DNA of 64,000 bases from Promethearchaeota archaeon (GTDB lineage Archaea > Asgardarchaeota > Lokiarchaeia > Sigyniarchaeales > SOKP01). Both the position numbers and the translations under genes were made by a program. This document shows positions 1 to 6,375 of the stretch, piece after piece; position 1 is the stretch's first letter; each line of letters begins with the position of its first letter. The stretch lies in the NCBI GenBank assembly GCA_048938855.1, contig JBHLLT010000004.1:121497-185496 (forward strand), in the 5' to 3' direction. The notes beneath the pieces are model-generated. The model ran no database searches. It worked only from the letters and a program-made list of their open reading frames with translations, and was not told the origin of the DNA.

Positions 1-72
1 AGCTAATTATTAATGTTTTAAAATTGAAGAATTAAGATAAATTTCACATTAAAAAGATAAAAAAATAAGAAT

Positions 73-1302
73 TTAAGTATTAATTAATACCTTAGCATTA
101 TTCTGCCAGTCTGTGACTGTTTTCACTGAAGCTCCAGATATACTTACTGAAAGTTCTTCAGGATTAGCCTCTAATAAATCTGAAATAGTTATGATTCCTT
201 GATTTCGTAAATTCTCCACAGTTCCCTTTCCAATACCTTTCACTTGAAGTAATTCAATTTCTTTATTTTCAGAAGAAGTGTCACTATTTTCTGCATCAGT
301 TTCTTCATATAATGTTTCAATTTCAAAATCCAATCCAGGTGATTCAGGGAGGTCAACCTTATCAGTGTCAGCCACTCCAGCTCCAGTTATATAAAATTCT
401 GCTTCTTCTGGAGGAAGGTCTGGAGCATCTACTATAACTGCTCTTCGTTTTAGCGAGTTGTTTGAGGAAAAACCTTTTGTTTTAAACATTACTCTGAAAT
501 GACACCCATGAGCAACAATGTTGCCTCCAATTGCGTCATCTGCTGAAAACAATCCCATCATTTTAGTAGCAACTTGATTAGTAAGTAACACAGCACAATT
601 ATAAGTTTCGGCAATACGAGATAATCCATGAATCATATTATTTAAAACTGCTTGTCTAGGTGCGAGTTTTCCAATTCCTATATATTCTGCCCTTAACAGT
701 GCCATTAGACTGTCAATAATAATCAAACGAACCCCACGAGTTTTACAGAGAGCTTCAGCTTTTTGAATCATCTGTTCTTGATGATCAGAAGAATAAATCC
801 GAGCATGAAAAATTTTAGAGAGGACATCTTTAGGACTGAGTTCAAATCTTTTTGCGATACGTTTGATTTTTTCTTTTGAAAAAGTATTTTCAGTATCAAT
901 ATAAGCAACAGCGCTATTTATTCCTCCCCTTTTTTCAGGAAGTTGAACTGTTACTGAAATTGTATGCGCTAAGGCGGTCTTTCCAGACTTAAATGGGCCA
1001 TAAACTTCAGTGAGTTTTCCAGTTTGGAATCCACCTCCTAAGATACGATTTAATTCAGCTGAACCTGTAGTAAAATATTCAACATTGTCATCAATTTTTG
1101 CAGCTGGAGTAAAGTCAGTCATTCCTAACGCATTTCTCGCATTCCAGATTAACTTTTTTGCTGTCTTCTCTCCTAATCCATCAATATTAGCAACGATAGA
1201 ATGAGGACTCATTGCTAATGCTTCAGCAGTACTTATTCCATTCTCTTGTAGTAGCTTTATTTGGCGTGAATTGATTCCCTTTACTTGATCTAAATCTGCC
1301 AT
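73..1302 (-). CDS. radA: RadA/Rad51-family recombinase (probable paralog) with acidic linker and extra C-terminal HhH domain
   Basis: N-terminal HhH, FTTGSAELNRILGGG, Walker A GPFKSGKT, YIDTENTF, LIIIDS, VLLTNQV, IGGNIVAH; C-terminal VKGIGKGT HhH. Confidence 0.9.
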   Translation of the reverse strand: MADLDQVKGINSRQIKLLQENGISTAEALAMSPHSIVANIDGLGEKTAKKLIWNARNALGMTDFTPAAKIDDNVEYFTTGSAELNRILGGGFQTGKLTEVYGPFKSGKTALAHTISVTVQLPEKRGGINSAVAYIDTENTFSKEKIKRIAKRFELSPKDVLSKIFHARIYSSDHQEQMIQKAEALCKTRGVRLIIIDSLMALLRAEYIGIGKLAPRQAVLNNMIHGLSRIAETYNCAVLLTNQVATKMMGLFSADDAIGGNIVAHGCHFRVMFKTKGFSSNNSLKRRAVIVDAPDLPPEEAEFYITGAGVADTDKVDLPESPGLDFEIETLYEETDAENSDTSSENKEIELLQVKGIGKGTVENLRNQGIITISDLLEANPEELSVSISGASVKTVTDWQNNAKVLINT

Positions 1303-1309
1303 CCTTCTG

Positions 1310-1347
1310 GTATATCAACTCCATTTTTAAAAATTTTGTTGATATAC
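1310..1347. promoter_or_regulatory. 10-bp inverted repeat between radA TATA box and start codon
   Basis: GTATATCAAC (1310-1319) and GTTGATATAC (1338-1347), 18-nt spacer. Confidence 0.5.
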
Positions 1348-1361
1348 ACTTCTATTTAGTA

Positions 1362-1377
1362 TATTTAAAGAAAAAAA
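1362..1377 (-). promoter_or_regulatory. T-rich-element/TATA promoter of radA (island motif)
   Basis: minus strand TTTTTTTCTTTAAATA about 60 nt upstream of the ATG; same motif recurs before other island operons. Confidence 0.6.
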
Positions 1378-1518
1378 GTAAAGAAAAAGAAGGATATACA
1401 ACAAAAAGCTATATCAAAGAGAAAAAAATCCCAAATTTAGAAATTTATATTTCTTCTTTTTCTTGTTAAAAAAATAATTATATTAAAGCTATTTAAAGAA
1501 AAAAAAAAGGTAGATTAA

Positions 1519-1728
1519 TTATTCTTTTATTAAAAAATAACCAATTCCTCCTTGGGCTGATGTAACATTAATAACTTTAAATCCGGTTGAATCTATATGT
1601 TGTTCAATATATTGAAGAGCTTCTTGAAAGAAATCCTTCTTTTTGATTTTAATTTCTTTAGTTTCCATCGAACTATGGTGGAGTAATTGCTCAGTCATTC
1701 TGGAGAGAAAAATAATTTCAGTTTTCAT
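1519..1728 (-). CDS. small hypothetical protein
   Basis: 69-aa ORF, plausible composition, between SECIS terminator and radA promoter. Confidence 0.55.
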   Translation of the reverse strand: MKTEIIFLSRMTEQLLHHSSMETKEIKIKKKDFFQEALQYIEQHIDSTGFKVINVTSAQGGIGYFLIKE

Positions 1729-1811
1729 TCTTATCCCTTTTTTTTACAAAAATTTTACCTAAAATATCATCTAACAAATATTTATATCTATCTCATTCAT
1801 AGCGAAGGTTT

Positions 1812-1821
1812 AAAAAAAAAA
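1812..1821 (-). terminator. oligo-T terminator after SECIS-1
   Basis: 10 consecutive T on minus strand directly 3' of the element. Confidence 0.55.
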
Positions 1822-1886
1822 CTGAATCCCTCACAGGGATAATCATCCAATAACTACCATTTTTTTATTGGAATCATTTTTTCAAG
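1822..1886 (-). promoter_or_regulatory. SECIS element 1 (eukaryote-type core)
   Basis: RNA CUUGAA-AAA-AUGAU-UCCAAUAA-AAAAAUGGUAG-UUAUUGGA-UGAU-U-AUCCC-UGUGA-GGGAU-UCAG, starting right after the stop of a TGA-containing ORF. Confidence 0.85.
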
Positions 1887-1887
1887 T

Positions 1888-2091
1888 TTAAGATAAATCT
1901 ATTCTGTGAAAGAGGCTTACGTATAAAACGATCAAAACAATTGCAGTTAATAAAAAGATCACTGAAGCTATAAGATAATTAACATAAAAACCTCACGCCC
2001 CCGATTCAAGATAACAAGCTATAGATGTTATTACTGATCCTATTATGGCTACAAGAATTATTGCTTTCTTTAAGTTTTCATTCAACAGCAT
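1888..2091 (-). CDS. putative small 2-TM selenoprotein 1 (67 aa, TGA at 1993-1995)
   Basis: MLLNENLKKAIILVAIIGSVITSIACYLESGA-U-GFYVNYLIASVIFLLTAIVLIVLYVSLFHRIDLS; frame stays open and hydrophobic after TGA; SECIS follows. Confidence 0.8.
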
Positions 2092-2204
2092 CACTTTTTT
2101 CTGTTTGAGAGTTTGTTTTAATCAAATATTAATTCGATTAAATATAAAAAATTTGACTATGAAATAATCGCAAGTAGAAATATTAAAAAGGAAAAATAAA
2201 AGTA

Positions 2205-2603
2205 TTATTCATTTAGAAGAATTTTTAATCCTTGAATAAGTTCTTGAGGAGTTACTCCATATAAAAGTGCCTGATGCATCATTTTAATGTTTATATCAAT
2301 TAGAGAATCTAAGTCTTTTCCCGGTTGAAATTTCACCATTAGTTTCTTGATAATTTTATATACTGAGAATTTATTTTGCTTTAATTTCCCAAAATAGCCT
2401 CCATATGCCAAGAAGAGGTTTGCCATGAGTTCAAGGTCTTCTTGTGAGTTATTTTTATAACACTCTTCGCATACCACTCCAAAACTAAGTCCTTCCTGAT
2501 ATATTGAAGCTCCTCGTTTGATTTCATTTCTACAAATCCCACATTTTATCACATCACGAGATAAATGGGTGGTCGGTTCTATATTAATTGAATTGATTTC
2601 CAT
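2205..2603 (-). CDS. zinc-finger hypothetical protein
   Basis: CGIC...CEEC pair; island promoter motif at 2625-2639. Confidence 0.75.
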   Translation of the reverse strand: MEINSINIEPTTHLSRDVIKCGICRNEIKRGASIYQEGLSFGVVCEECYKNNSQEDLELMANLFLAYGGYFGKLKQNKFSVYKIIKKLMVKFQPGKDLDSLIDINIKMMHQALLYGVTPQELIQGLKILLNE

Positions 2604-2737
2604 AATATTCTTTAATACTAGGTATATTTAAAGAAAAAAGGGTAGAAAATAGTTTGATAAATGTATATAAAACCCGAACTATTTTCACATTTGATGTCTA
2701 AATATTAAAATAAAATAATGATTTTAGCAAAATATTA

Positions 2738-2803
2738 CCAAAATCCTGGGCGAGGATAATCATCCAATAACTACCATTTTTTTATTGGAATCATTTTTCT
2801 TGG
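2738..2803 (-). promoter_or_regulatory. SECIS element 2
   Basis: CCAAG-AAAA-AUGAU-UCCAAUAA-AAAAAUGGUAG-UUAUUGGA-UGAU-U-AUCCU-CGCCC-AGGAU-UUUGG. Confidence 0.85.
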
Positions 2804-2818
2804 ATTTAAACCTGAATT

Positions 2819-3034
2819 TTACTTATTCGATTTTCTTTTATCTTCTATGTATAACATTCTGATTACACCGAGTAACACACAAGCAATTATGAAACTAGCA
2901 AACATCACATATGGAGGAAATAATAAATAACTACCTCAAGCTGAAAGCATCGACATCACTAACATGCTAATACCAAAAATTATGAAAATAAAAGAAACAA
3001 CACCTAAAATTCCTTTAACTACTGCATTTGACAT
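2819..3034 (-). CDS. putative small 2-TM selenoprotein 2 (71 aa, TGA at 2936-2938)
   Basis: MSNAVVKGILGVVSFIFIIFGISMLVMSMLSA-U-GSYLLFPPYVMFASFIIACVLLGVIRMLYIEDKRKSNK. Confidence 0.8.
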
Positions 3035-3097
3035 AAAAATCATTCTATTTTGTTATTCACTTATCCTGAATTTTAAAATCGTTTAGATCTTTAATCT

Positions 3098-3307
3098 TTA
3101 TTTATTTTGTATTAATGGGAGCACAATATATATTACAATTGATACTATTGCAATGCTATCACTAATTATCGCGGGTATTGTGAGATATCTTATATTTCAT
3201 GATAAAACAGGGTAATAGTACGGGGAAAGTATATGTAAAACGACACCGATAACACCAAATATACATATAAGACTCAATAGAATTGTCTTGATTTTTTTAG
3301 TTTTCAT
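3098..3307 (-). CDS. putative small 2-TM selenoprotein 3 (69 aa, TGA at 3197-3199)
   Basis: MKTKKIKTILLSLICIFGVIGVVLHILSPYYYPVLS-U-NIRYLTIPAIISDSIAIVSIVIYIVLPLIQNK. Confidence 0.75.
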
Positions 3308-3432
3308 CTGAAATCTTTATTTTCTGGCATTTATATTTATTTTTGTATATTATTTTCACTAATCACTATTTTAAGTTTATTATCAAAAGTTCTATAATTT
3401 TGTATTAGTTGAAAGCTTACTTTGAATATTTC

Positions 3433-3497
3433 CCGAATCCCTCACAAGGATAATCATCCAATGACTATCATTTTTTCATTGGAATCATTTCTTTCGG
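3433..3497 (-). promoter_or_regulatory. SECIS element 3
   Basis: CCGAA-AGAA-AUGAU-UCCAAUGA-AAAAAUGAUAG-UCAUUGGA-UGAU-U-AUCCU-UGUGA-GGGAU-UCGG; A-U to G-C compensatory pair relative to copies 1 and 2. Confidence 0.85.
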
Positions 3498-3515
3498 TTT
3501 AAATTTGAGTAAGAT

Positions 3516-3740
3516 CTAGCCTCTTATATCTTCCACCACTAAAACTATTAATACAACAATATAGACCAATGCTAAAAAGAGGCCTATAATCACTGAATAA
3601 ACTGGATTTACTGATATTGTCCATGTTGTCGATGGAGCTCAAACAACAGTCATCATTGAGTCGATTATTGCTCTAAAAATGAAAAATAATGCACACATTA
3701 TTAGAACTACTTTGGTTGTCCACTTCAATTCAAATCTCAT
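3516..3740 (-). CDS. putative small 2-TM selenoprotein 4 (74 aa, TGA at 3639-3641)
   Basis: MRFELKWTTKVVLIMCALFFIFRAIIDSMMTVV-U-APSTTWTISVNPVYSVIIGLFLALVYIVVLIVLVVEDIRG; both Trp are TGG; GAGTGAG upstream. Confidence 0.8.
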
Positions 3741-3772
3741 TTTACTCACTCAACATATTAATCACAGAACAT

Positions 3773-3979
3773 TTATGTTCGTTTCGCTTTCCTAATATAA
3801 AGTATATATGCCACAACCAAGATTCCCGCAATTGAGAAGCTAATAATTGCTGGGATGGGCGTCTCTACTAGCAGATGTCCTCAAGCTAATATGTTATATC
3901 CAATTATTAATCCAACACCCATAACCAAGAAAACAACTATGAATGTGATTAAAAGCCCTTTAATTACATCCTTTCTCAT
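3773..3979 (-). CDS. putative small 2-TM selenoprotein 5 (68 aa, TGA at 3881-3883)
   Basis: MRKDVIKGLLITFIVVFLVMGVGLIIGYNILA-U-GHLLVETPIPAIISFSIAGILVVAYILYIRKAKRT; AAGTTTTATATA promoter-like site near 4031-4042. Confidence 0.8.
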
Positions 3980-4097
3980 TTTAATCATTAAATTTCTATT
4001 TAATTTATGACGATGAAAAAGAAAAATCATTATATAAAACTTGTTTAATAAAAGTTTGAAAATTTGGATTTGGTAAAAGCTGAAATAATTTTTTTAA

Positions 4098-4808
4098 TCA
4101 AATTAGTACTATTCCATTATGCTTTAGAATAAATTGAAAGTTCCATTTCATATCATTGAATTGTATAAGTAAATCTTTTTTTTCAGTATTAATTACTTTT
4201 CTCAACTCGATATCAATTGTCTGAATTCTATCATATAGCTTATAGAAGAAAGGTCTAAGCTTTTGGAGAGTTGGATTATAAGTAACTTCATGAATTATGA
4301 ACAAGATAATACCATTCCTTTTACAAAATATAATAAAAGGCATAAGAATTGTGTCGTAAAAGCTATCTAATATATATGAAACATGCTGTGGCGTATTAAA
4401 ATGAGTTATTTTATAACGTAAATGGTGGGATATATTATCAATAACCAAGTATTTAAGATATGGGGGTAAAATGAAATTTGAGTTTAATATTTTTTCTATA
4501 ATTGAAGATTGTTCTTCATATGTGCAGATTGGTCCTTTTTGAGGGATTATATAAATATTATTTACTACATATTCTAATTTTTGGGGATTATTTTCAAAAA
4601 TTTGTGATATCCGTTTTACTGGAAACCTTTCGCTTGCTTGAACCCAAATACATGAATCTTTATATGGTTCGTTTTCGGTTAAAAGGTTACCTATTAGCTG
4701 AAGTGCAAATGTAGTCTTACCGGTCCCAGATTCACCAGAGATAGAGAGTATATTATGATGAGAAAATAACTTTTCAATACCATGGAATAGGTTCAATTCT
4801 GTCTGCAT
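4098..4808 (-). CDS. RadB/Rad51-paralog-like RecA-family ATPase
   Basis: GESGTGKTTFALQL Walker A, YLVIDNIS Walker B, no N-terminal HhH; likely start MQTEL at 4808, coupled to the upstream stop. Confidence 0.8.
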   Translation of the reverse strand: MQTELNLFHGIEKLFSHHNILSISGESGTGKTTFALQLIGNLLTENEPYKDSCIWVQASERFPVKRISQIFENNPQKLEYVVNNIYIIPQKGPICTYEEQSSIIEKILNSNFILPPYLKYLVIDNISHHLRYKITHFNTPQHVSYILDSFYDTILMPFIIFCKRNGIILFIIHEVTYNPTLQKLRPFFYKLYDRIQTIDIELRKVINTEKKDLLIQFNDMKWNFQFILKHNGIVLI

Positions 4809-4809
4809 G

Positions 4810-5154
4810 TTAATCTTCTTCAAGCAGTTCAAGTACTTCTTGTTTGATTTTATCTATTTGTTGATCCTTTTCTTTTTTTTTTTCATTATCTACTTGATTG
4901 TCATTATTCTCTGAAGAAGAATTCATAAGCTGCTGTATCATCATTAACGTTATTAGGTCATCCATTCTACTGTCTTGCTGAGCATTTTTTCCACTAAAAA
5001 ATCCAAATACCCCTCTATTCGAACCCGAAGATCTCGATTTGAAAAACAAATAGACAATTATAAACAATACAATAATAATAATGGCATACATTGGATTCTG
5101 TTGATAGAAGATAAAAAATCCAAGTATTAACGCAATATAACAATATCCTTTCAT
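4810..5154 (-). CDS. small membrane protein (N-terminal TM hairpin)
   Basis: two hydrophobic segments then charged tail; GGTGGA SD-like site. Confidence 0.75.
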   Translation of the reverse strand: MKGYCYIALILGFFIFYQQNPMYAIIIIVLFIIVYLFFKSRSSGSNRGVFGFFSGKNAQQDSRMDDLITLMMIQQLMNSSSENNDNQVDNEKKKEKDQQIDKIKQEVLELLEED

Positions 5155-5175
5155 TCATTCCACCTCTTTTTTATG

Positions 5176-5919
5176 TTATTTTTCCTTCCATGGTTTTTTT
5201 GGTTTATAATGCTTACGAGAAAATTGCTTAAACTTGATCTTCTCTGGTTGTTTGAAATTTCTTGATTTTGCTTTAAATACGATTTTTCTAACCCCAATAA
5301 ACGAAAATTTTAACAGTAGGTAAATAGCGGTAATAGCTATATAATAAAAAAAATCTAAAATAAAGTAGATTTGAGTGAAAATTAAAAATAACCATAAAAT
5401 TAAAACTGATAGACAAATTAAGAGAATTTGATACCAGGAATAAGCTGGATCCTTTCTAAAAGAATGAGTTATATATTGCAAATCACCTTTAGAAGGAGAC
5501 GCAGTCAAAAGTAGGGAAATCAATATAAAGATTGCAATTATTTTCACTAAAGGATTAAAAGATGGAGTAAAAATTACTCCAAACCATAATAAAAAAATTA
5601 ACCACGTACTAATATAGAGGGGTGCGAAACTGATTATAATTGTTTGTAGAAAGCTTGGTGGTTTTTCAAGACTTATCGACCCATAAACGCCACCATTATT
5701 TTGTTCGGTTTTTTTCTGCCATTTGATATTAAAACTATATGGCATTTTGCCTACGACTAAACTCATTAAATAATGAGCAAGCTCATGGAAAAAGACGCCA
5801 AAAATACAAATTCGCAGAGCAATAGGCCTTAAAACTCCAGATCTATCACTATTTATGAAACTTGACATTATTAGAGATATGAATAATATGCCAAGAAAGA
5901 TCAATGGTTCTTCAATCAT
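5176..5919 (-). CDS. membrane zinc metalloprotease, M50-like
   Basis: HELAH motif, multiple TMs, SFAPL and PSKGD motifs. Confidence 0.75.
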   Translation of the reverse strand: MIEEPLIFLGILFISLIMSSFINSDRSGVLRPIALRICIFGVFFHELAHYLMSLVVGKMPYSFNIKWQKKTEQNNGGVYGSISLEKPPSFLQTIIISFAPLYISTWLIFLLWFGVIFTPSFNPLVKIIAIFILISLLLTASPSKGDLQYITHSFRKDPAYSWYQILLICLSVLILWLFLIFTQIYFILDFFYYIAITAIYLLLKFSFIGVRKIVFKAKSRNFKQPEKIKFKQFSRKHYKPKKPWKEK

Positions 5920-6375
5920 GAATTATTATACCATTCATCAAATATAAAGGAAAAAATGTGGAATTTAAATATTCCAAATTAGACTTAAATATAGAAAATA
6001 TCACCTTATTTATTAAAGACAACAAATTCAGAAAGAGAGGCCATTAAATTCGTTGTTTTGATACTGTGATATTAGAAATGGTAAGATTTTACTATACTTA
6101 TCTTCCAAATTTATATAAGAATCATTATAATTTTATATTTCCTTACGTTTATTGATAAGTTTTGGTTTAATCTCGTTTATTTCGAGCAATTTGCTTTCAT
6201 TGACAGAAATGTCAATGCAGAATAGAATTAAAAAAATCATAAAATTTTTGTAACTACCAAAAAACTACCCCTTGAAATTGAAGAGAAGAAAGCTTCTTTT
6301 CATCGATTAAATTTTGAAGAAAAGATTTAAAAACCAAACTCCTTCCTTATATTCTTTAGGTAAATAAAAAAAATA

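Follow-up and report, generated by a model that had tools for sequence, protein, structure and literature searches.

Covarying three-way junctions in SECIS elements behind small UGA-containing membrane genes of a Lokiarchaeial genome

Three elements and five small genes at the locus

The window, meaning the whole 64,000-nt stretch of DNA that was analyzed, comes from a metagenome-assembled genome (MAG) of a Promethearchaeota (Lokiarchaeia) archaeon from sediment, which has 30% GC and comprises 3.95 Mb in 93 contigs. Within positions 1-6000, all relevant genes lie on the minus strand, on which the elements described here are also read. Three near-identical elements of about 65 nt with one common layout were found within 1.7 kb, and they begin 10 to 27 nt past the stop codons of the genes here called P1, P2, and P4 (Table 1). 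P1 to P5 are unannotated, and each contains one in-frame UGA between two hydrophobic helices, with basic residues at both ends of the predicted protein. P1 is served by SECIS copy 1, which begins 116 nt past the UGA. P5 lies upstream of P4 across a gap of 23 nt, and P3, which has no SECIS of its own, is separated from P2 by 54 nt. As both gaps are too short to hold a SECIS, each pair of genes probably relies on one element, like hdrA-vhuD. P3 likely uses copy 2, roughly 400 nt downstream, and P5 likely uses copy 3, roughly 395 nt downstream and common to P4.

Table 1. Positions of the genes and elements (window positions unless a contig is named)
Feature	Position	Strand	Description
P5	3773..3979	-	68-aa two-helix membrane ORF; UGA 3881-3883 (ILA-U-GH)
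P4	3516..3749	-	77-aa two-helix membrane ORF; UGA 3639-3641 (TVV-U-APS); served by SECIS copy 3
SECIS copy 3	3433..3497	-	core model R1 52.0 bits
Copy 3 outer helix	3497-3493 with 3437-3433	-	
Copy 3 AUGA	3488-3485	-	
Copy 3 helix II	3483-3476 with 3464-3457	-	one compensatory G-C pair
Copy 3 apical loop	3475-3465	-	
Copy 3 GA	3455-3454	-	
Copy 3 side hairpin	3451-3447 / loop 3446-3442 / 3441-3437	-	
P3	3098..3307	-	69-aa two-helix membrane ORF; UGA 3197-3199 (VLS-U-NIR); database entry P0006
P2	2819..3043	-	74-aa two-helix membrane ORF; UGA 2936-2938 (LSA-U-GS)
SECIS copy 2	2738..2803	-	core model R1 52.6 bits
Copy 2 outer helix	2803-2799 with 2742-2738	-	
Copy 2 AUGA	2794-2791	-	
Copy 2 helix II	2789-2782 with 2770-2763	-	
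Copy 2 apical loop	2781-2771	-	
Copy 2 GA	2761-2760	-	
Copy 2 side hairpin	2757-2753 / loop 2752-2748 / 2747-2743	-	
P1	1888..2094	-	68-aa two-helix membrane ORF; UGA 1993-1995 (SGA-U-GF)
SECIS copy 1	1822..1885	-	three-way junction; core model R1 52.6 bits
Copy 1 outer helix	1885-1881 with 1826-1822	-	
Copy 1 AUGA	1877-1874	-	
Copy 1 helix II	1872-1865 with 1853-1846	-	
Copy 1 apical loop	1864-1854	-	
Copy 1 GA	1844-1843	-	
Copy 1 side hairpin	1840-1836 / loop 1835-1831 / 1830-1826	-	
U10 tract	1812-1821		directly after SECIS copy 1
tRNA-Sec	C49:41348-41440		
Elements behind hdrA+vhuD	contigs C20, C64, C62, C74		
Element behind hdrA	contig C77		
Element behind peroxiredoxin-like protein (PrxL)	contig C34		
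Element behind protein with adjacent UGA-UGA	contig C49		
Element behind one-helix membrane peptide	contig C66		
Elements behind small two-helix membrane ORFs	three window copies		

The core of the element is the same in all three copies and consists of AUGA-U, an 8-bp Watson-Crick stem (UCCAAUAA/UUAUUGGA), an 11-nt loop (AAAAAUGGUAG), and U-GA-U. The apical loops read AAAAAUG(G/A)UAG, with AAAAAUGAUAG in copy 3, and the copy 3 stem carries a compensatory change of an A-U pair to G-C (UCCAAUGA/UCAUUGGA). When the adjoining mismatch is included, the stem amounts to 8 Watson-Crick pairs plus U.U. An A-rich linker of 3 to 4 nt separates the 5′ strand of an outer helix from the AUGA, and a UU linker follows the U-GA and leads into a side hairpin of 5 bp with the general form AUCCY / 5-nt loop / RGGAU. 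The side hairpins are AUCCC-UGUGA-GGGAU in copy 1, AUCCU-CGCCC-AGGAU in copy 2, and AUCCU-UGUGA-GGGAU in copy 3, and the corresponding outer helices are UUGAA/UUCAG, CCAAG/UUUGG, and CCGAA/UUCGG. Copies 1 and 3 use a single U both to end the hairpin and to begin the outer 3′ strand, such that the two helices are 5 and 4 or 4 and 5 bp long.

An initial annotation, made from the sequence alone, had described AUGAU, an 8-bp stem, the A-rich loop, and UGAU in every copy, the compensatory change in copy 3, a second hairpin of the form AUCCY-YGYNN-RGGAU in each copy, and an outer helix that varies in sequence while pairing is kept. All four descriptions held, the first in 3/3 copies, and the last required only the correction that copies 1 and 3 share one U. 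Pairing of the UAG of the apical loop with a CUA in the 3′ linker was also considered and was set aside, as the two sites lie at opposite ends of helix II; this pairing is untestable by covariation because the UAG never varies.

Selenocysteine machinery and coding past the UGA

The source genome encodes a tRNA-Sec, a SepSecS directly adjoining it (464 bits), and a SelB-like factor at C49:35767-36657, 5 kb from the two. A covariance model, R1, was built on the core only (37 positions, 8 pairs, no flanks). The R1 scan of all 3.95 Mb gave 10 matches at 38 to 53 bits, and everything else scored at or below 25 bits, a gap which indicates that the core matches exceed chance. A pattern scan added one element with a 12-nt loop for a total of 11 elements in the genome, and an ORF with an in-frame UGA was found directly upstream of each (11/11), such that matches were confined to the 3′ sides of UGA genes. 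Moreover, the core was present in 129 of 131 genomes of the source's family (13 genera) and in 0 of 19 genomes from three sister families of the same order; hits in 130 genomes number roughly 700. The initial annotation had assigned the copies, with their AUGA/GA core and A-rich loop, to the SECIS elements, and the UGA genes upstream and the selenocysteine (Sec) machinery support that reading.

Homologues of P5 were recovered by six-frame search in genomes G150, G038, G078, G118, and G015, which represent at least two genera, and each had exactly one TGA, located at an aligned A-U-G-(H/N/S) motif, as well as a SECIS downstream. In an alignment of 16 sequences, the UGA fell in one column in 15 and was replaced by Ser in one paralogue. 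The P3 ortholog in G150 retains the UGA, and the P4 homologue in the same genome has a UGA at the aligned position. When codons past the UGA were compared with the G150 orthologues, P5 had 18 synonymous and 6 nonsynonymous differences (dN/dS 0.05), P2 had 14 and 3 (dN/dS 0.02), and P3 was under weak constraint (dN/dS 0.43). We conclude that the codons past the UGA of P2 and P5 are under purifying selection. A further residue, Cys55 of P2 (TGT, 2879-2881), is a TGA in G150 and in one metagenome contig and thus forms a Cys/Sec pair. The gene array varies in size, with one member in G038, five in the source genome, and at least eight in G150. One relative carries GGA (Gly) at the Sec site and has kept the SECIS, and thus, the presence of a SECIS is in itself no proof of current use.

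Public protein sets contain these genes either as products that stop at the UGA or as translations that read TGA as W, and P5 is represented by entries truncated at the UGA (P0007 and P0008). No Pfam family passed the cutoff in searches with P1 to P5, orf132, and the "UU" protein. A profile search of 1.84 billion representative proteins gave 11 matches only, and no Cys form of the A-U-G motif was found among them. Neither the 7 Asgard nor the 11 archaeal selenoprotein families catalogued as of 2026 include P1 to P5. We think it likely that P1 to P5 constitute an uncatalogued family of small membrane selenoproteins, with the incorporation of Sec itself being inferred.

Covariation of a third hairpin and a closing helix

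Single-sequence folding of the window copies gave z scores of -0.5, +0.3, and -1.1, indicating that the copies are no more stable than shuffled sequences, and thus, support for the junction is comparative rather than thermodynamic. For the comparison, elements were located by the core alone, independently of their flanks, and a flank test asked whether a 3′ hairpin and a helix enclosing both hairpin and core were present, relative to shuffled flanks. Among the elements of the source genome and its best matches, mostly from its own genus, 35 of 38 distinct elements passed at p <= 0.02, with an energy gain of -5 to -14.5 kcal/mol versus -0.3 +/- 1 for shuffles. Among elements from ten other genera, 39 of 53 passed at the same threshold, and the hairpin was present in nearly all. 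Over both sets, the energy gain was -5 to -17 kcal/mol versus about -0.3 to -1.4 for shuffles. Roughly one-quarter of the other-genera elements had no outer helix detectable within the limits of the search, and most of these belonged to one subclass with AU-rich flanks. Failures were mostly of two kinds: the subclass behind the "UU" gene family, in which the outer strands are AU-rich or farther off, and cases that fell just outside the gap limits of the search.

A full model of the element, R2, was built from nine gapless seed sequences and was used to align 92 elements, 86 of them distinct. Standard pairs occupied 93% of the cells in the alignment of distinct sequences versus 58% after shuffling (0/500 shuffles as high), and only 36 to 52% of the cells paired when the partners were slid by 1 to 3 columns. 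Double-sided changes were observed at 7/7 pairs of the outer helix and 5/5 pairs of the side hairpin, and the covariation score was 0.78, versus 0.20 for shuffles and 0.08 to 0.22 for slid partners. As the R2 alignment is fitted to the structure, the count was repeated on a plain gapless MAFFT alignment of the seed, in which compensatory changes exceeded those of every shuffle and every slide. When RNAalifold was run on 9 elements and their flanks in a plain MAFFT alignment, it recovered helix II only, because the flanks were misaligned, and thus, structure-anchored search and model-based alignment were used instead. We conclude that the bases of the junction are paired, as shown by covariation.

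The alignment also indicated which bases outside the helices are conserved. The AUGA was invariant in 85 of 86 aligned relatives and was preceded by G-A (G in 77/84). At the 3′ side, the first position of the G/A-A pair of bases was G in 67 and A in 19, the second was A in 84/85, and a C followed in 77/85. The loop of the side hairpin contained a G (77/80), a C (68/79), and then a purine; the hairpin loops of the window copies retain the G, with U or C variants around it. In most parsed elements, the hairpin abutted the outer 3′ strand with zero linker. A third model, R3, made from all 92 sequences, detected this fold in two other Asgard families, in which its helices are GC-rich. The extra hairpin and closing helix that the initial annotation had reported for the three copies thus held and covary but are not peculiar to those copies. 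On the evidence of covariation and the flank test, we conclude that type I SECISs of this Lokiarchaeial family generally take the form of a three-way junction, which is also present in two other Asgard families.

Interpretation and comparison with known systems

Our preferred reading, which we consider likely, is that the repeats are functional three-armed SECIS elements in the 3′ untranslated regions (3′UTRs) of three short minus-strand transcripts and that they decode the UGAs upstream. The transcription units are inferred and would be P5-P4-SECIS3, P3-P2-SECIS2, and P1-SECIS1, such that two of the three elements would serve two cistrons each. Each RNA would form a three-way junction closed by an outer helix of 4 to 5 bp. 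Arm 2 would be the lokiSECIS arm, in which the AUGA and the GA form tandem G.A/A.G pairs below the 8-bp helix and its A-rich loop of 11 nt, whose last bases are AG, and arm 3 would be the short side hairpin, placed after the 3′ GA and before the outer helix closes. The junction may set the orientation of a kink-turn-like core, a geometry that is inferred, and the core and the side-hairpin loop would be presented to the Sec machinery. The binding partners are likewise inferred and would include Sec-tRNA-Sec and the SelB-like elongation factor, and perhaps an L7Ae-type or still unknown adaptor. UGA codons 116 to 403 nt upstream of the elements would then be decoded as selenocysteine. The sequence features, the link to UGA genes, the presence of the Sec machinery, and coding selection past the UGA are shown. 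Evidence for insertion of Sec at the UGA is indirect, resting on the dN/dS of 0.02 to 0.05 for P2 and P5 and on the Cys/UGA pair, and there is no experimental evidence for insertion or for the RNA fold.

The observations could be explained in other ways. The core hairpin alone might be the SECIS, and the side hairpin and closing helix might be a separate 3′-end structure, either a terminator or an mRNA-stabilizing clamp, that merely travels with it. In favor of that explanation, the elements sit at transcript 3′ ends, a U10 tract follows copy 1, the published models require only the core, stem, and loop, and some elements lack a clear outer helix. Against it, one strand of the outer helix comes from before the core and the other from beyond the hairpin, and the helix, by joining both flanks, encloses the SECIS arm rather than trailing it. 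Moreover, the spacing from the GA to the hairpin is fixed at 2 to 4 nt, the G-C of the hairpin loop is near-invariant across genera and gene families, and the fold is also conserved in GC-rich Asgard families. Archaeal termination depends on oligo-U and not on hairpins, which also counts against a terminator. We regard a separate 3′-end structure as unlikely.

More doubtful still, in our judgment very unlikely, are explanations in which the elements are not SECISs or the UGAs are not selenocysteine codons. The elements could be a noncoding repeat family, either mobile or REP-like, or a small kink-turn RNA such as a C/D box sRNA, with the ORFs being chance frames or pseudogenes. Three near-identical copies do lie within 1.7 kb, the repeats mark joins between contigs of related strains, and the ORFs have no Pfam match. 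However, the elements occur only behind UGA genes, including bona fide hdrA, vhuD, and PrxL; they have no Rfam match at permissive thresholds and no C/D box pair; and conservation of the ORFs extends across genus boundaries, with the TGA aligned in a single column and with the low dN/dS past the UGA of P2 and P5. Alternatively, the UGA could be read as a standard amino acid (Trp, Cys, or Gly) or be reassigned without selenocysteine, and both the TGA-to-W translation of several homologues by public pipelines and the Gly (GGA) in one relative and Ser in one paralogue might suggest as much. Nonetheless, TGA is a real stop elsewhere in the genome, as it terminates vhuD on C20 and PrxL on C34, only genes trailed by a SECIS contain an in-frame UGA, tRNA-Sec, SepSecS, and the SelB-like factor are all present, and a Cys/UGA pair exists at a second site.

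The three-armed SECIS reading may be extended to a bolder one, which as a whole is no more than possible. In that extension, the Asgard SECIS would be a k-junction, and the near-invariant G-C loop of the third hairpin would dock an unidentified SECIS-binding factor or the C-terminal part of archaeal SelB. The element would have been copied together with fast-evolving cassettes for two-helix microproteins that probably expose a selenol at the outer membrane face and that constitute a selenoprotein family confined to Lokiarchaeia. If the docking-hairpin reading were true, it would give a first concrete handle on how a 3′UTR SECIS communicates with the ribosome in archaea and on the precursor of SBP2.

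Asgard SECIS elements are taken to connect Sec decoding in archaea with that in eukaryotes, yet published models end at the core hairpin. A conserved third helix and loop alter what to model, what to search for, and what to mutate, and they provide a defined RNA surface for capturing the archaeal SECIS-binding partner that is still missing. Working outward from the SECIS also reveals selenoprotein genes that homology surveys miss, among them P1 to P5 and several other small families in related genomes.

Among known systems, the box C/D sRNA (C box RUGAUGA, D box CUGA, guides) was rejected, as the elements have no 3′ CUGA and no snoRNA family match. The euryarchaeal SECIS of Methanococcus and Methanopyrus is likewise a 3′UTR element that directs archaeal Sec insertion, but in it a GAA_A bulge separates a GC-rich lower stem of 10 bp from a G/C upper stem of 3 bp (PMC4989117), and none of these bulge or stem features is found in the window copies, which therefore do not belong to this class. 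The type I eukaryotic SECIS (Rfam SECIS_1) resembles the copies in its AUGA/GA quartet, unpaired apical adenines, closing helix I, and 3′UTR location, but helix II of the window copies is shorter (8 bp) and the 3′ side of their internal loop holds a whole hairpin. No Rfam match was obtained at the gathering score or at E <= 10, SECIS_1 included, and membership was rejected on all three grounds. The claim of the initial annotation that the added hairpin lies outside the textbook eukaryotic SECIS thus held, there being no SECIS_1 match and a branched internal loop. No SBP2 homologue is known in Asgard archaea (PMC4989117).

The k-junction was described by Wang, Daldrop, Huang, and Lilley in 2014 in the TPP riboswitch and in J4/5 of the Haloarcula marismortui (H. 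marismortui) 23S rRNA, with a third helix that stacks on the canonical helix (PMC4005666). Solved examples have k-turn hydrogen bonds, a three- or four-nucleotide loop, and a third helix coaxial with the C helix. The elements share with them a canonical helix 5′ of the loop, G.A/A.G pairs that open the second helix, and a third helix in the nonbulged strand, but the linkers here, 5 to 7 nt on the 5′ side and 2 to 4 nt on the 3′ side, exceed those of the solved structures. The zero-length linker between the hairpin and the outer helix in most parsed elements is compatible with stacking, for which there are no three-dimensional data. The resemblance is one of secondary structure only, and k-turn geometry, being inferred, is not assured. 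At that level, the k-junction topology is met, in the order outer helix, linker, (AU)GA, helix II, GA, linker, hairpin, and outer helix.

The closest known element is the lokiSECIS of Mariotti et al. (2016, PMC4989117), renamed the type I eSECIS-like element by Huang, Xiao, and Zhang (2024, PMC11227280). In that element, an AUGA directly precedes, and GA or AA follows, an upper stem of about 9 bp (7 to 15 in the 2024 version), and the apical loop of 11 nt opens with adenines and closes with a G. Published Asgard models comprise the core, upper stem, and apical loop, to which the 2024 paper adds a "lower stem" and an "internal loop" without conserved bases (PMC11227280), and a 2026 review repeats the 2024 model. 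The 2024 authors cite the k-junction paper only for GA_AA pairing. The published descriptions differ from the elements reported here in having no side hairpin, G-C loop, or three-way junction, and P1 to P5 fall outside the published selenoprotein families. No description of a three-way-junction Asgard SECIS was found in the papers searched with "SECIS" and "three-way junction," a search that did not cover the supplement of Mariotti et al. 2016. The core is thus already known, and the junction with its conserved third hairpin is, as far as we searched, unpublished. The likeness of the core extends to the AUGA before the stem, the 8 bp plus U.U that make up a "9-bp" stem, the 11-nt AAAAA...AG loop, the GA after the stem, the 3′UTR location near the stop codon, and the use of one element for two genes, as at hdrA-vhuD. 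The initial annotation had taken the core for the eukaryotic SECIS kink-turn core, an identification that is refined here to exactly the lokiSECIS published in 2016 and is not new. We conclude that the core of the window copies is the lokiSECIS and that it meets all of the sequence and position criteria tested.

Composition and variation of the small membrane array

P1 to P5, the five small ORFs of the array, each carry a single in-frame UGA codon at a conserved A-U-G-like motif, where U denotes the UGA/selenocysteine (Sec) position. The presence of basic residues at both ends suggests that the Sec-bearing turn points outward. Gene number in the array varies by species, with one gene in genome G038, five in the source genome of the window, and at least eight in genome G150.

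P2 residue 55 (window 2879-2881) is Cys (TGT) in the source genome and is encoded by TGA in two relatives (L095:328-552 and L170:188-412), and this residue constitutes a second site, a Cys/Sec pair within the second helix. Apart from this P2 site, a relative of the small membrane family (L171:528-818) has GGA (Gly) at the position occupied by TGA in the other members, and a three-way-junction Sec-insertion (SECIS) element (58 bits) is still found 18 nt past its stop codon. The Gly form appears to reflect a recent loss of Sec.

Features of the array and other UGA-containing genes
Feature	Location	Strand	Description
P1-P5 tandem array	window 1888-3979	minus	five unannotated ORFs, 68-77 aa, two-helix membrane
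Conserved 132-aa ORF	window 2205-2603	minus	CxxC...CxxC; within array, between SECIS 2 and P1
UU family, source genome	L005:3804-4280, C49		just upstream of SECIS at 285288
UU family, further loci	L051, L058, L062, L066, L071, L078, L080, L082
Zinc-ribbon-like protein	L055, L079, L076/L084 (G086:C9, G130:C65, G141:C53)		73-74 aa; CPxCG...CxxCG, then SECIS
One-helix membrane peptides	L003 (source genome C66:27745-27960), L031, L036, L068, L092		51-70 aa; SECIS 3′ of each
N/T-U-TM..CGNV proteins	L059, L065 (G097:C121, G054:C107)		131-148 aa; one UGA, then SECIS
hdrA copy, source genome	L001, C20:87500-89540		four in-frame UGA: CQ-U-G, FL-U-T, SA-U-T, AI-U-I

Cassettes between SECIS repeats

The 132-aa ORF, for which no Pfam match was found, also adjoins the lone small selenoprotein gene of G038 (L096:2006-2404). 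In contigs from other runs (sediment, mangrove, and metagenome), junctions or points of divergence fall exactly on the SECIS repeats (window 1880-2185 and 3432/1824), and one such contig has approximately 320 different bases replacing P1. Because the contigs join or diverge exactly at the repeats, the intervening cassettes seem to be exchanged among strains. Alternatively, the repeats themselves could have induced assembly breaks, which is not excluded.

Other UGA-containing genes ahead of SECIS elements

The UU family comprises conserved proteins of 110 to 158 aa, to which Pfam gave no match and whose genes have two in-frame UGA codons side by side (motifs HAD-UU-AD, GC-UU-, and U-G-UU). The UU gene is arranged in tandem in G141. 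UU family genes always have a SECIS element 3′ of them, of a sub-class whose side hairpin reads UAGGA-uugca-UCCUA. We note separately that two trinucleotides of SECIS alignment A6 (columns 42-44 and 57-59) are complementary to each other: the UAG with which the apical loop ends on its 3′ side, which does not vary, and the CUA that is common as the linker following the 3′ GA. They sit at opposite ends of helix II, the 8-bp stem.

The zinc-ribbon-like protein, present in three genera, contains four in-frame UGA codons. In the one-helix peptides, the UGA lies within a Gly-rich stretch past the helix, often near the C-terminal end (contexts CG-U-GG, TG-U-GC, GG-U-GC, and CP-U-S). A relative of the N/T-U-TM..CGNV proteins in genome G116 (L090) apparently lacks a UGA in the listed frame. 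Finally, the remaining hdrA copies of the source genome have two in-frame UGA codons and encode Cys at the other two of the four positions.
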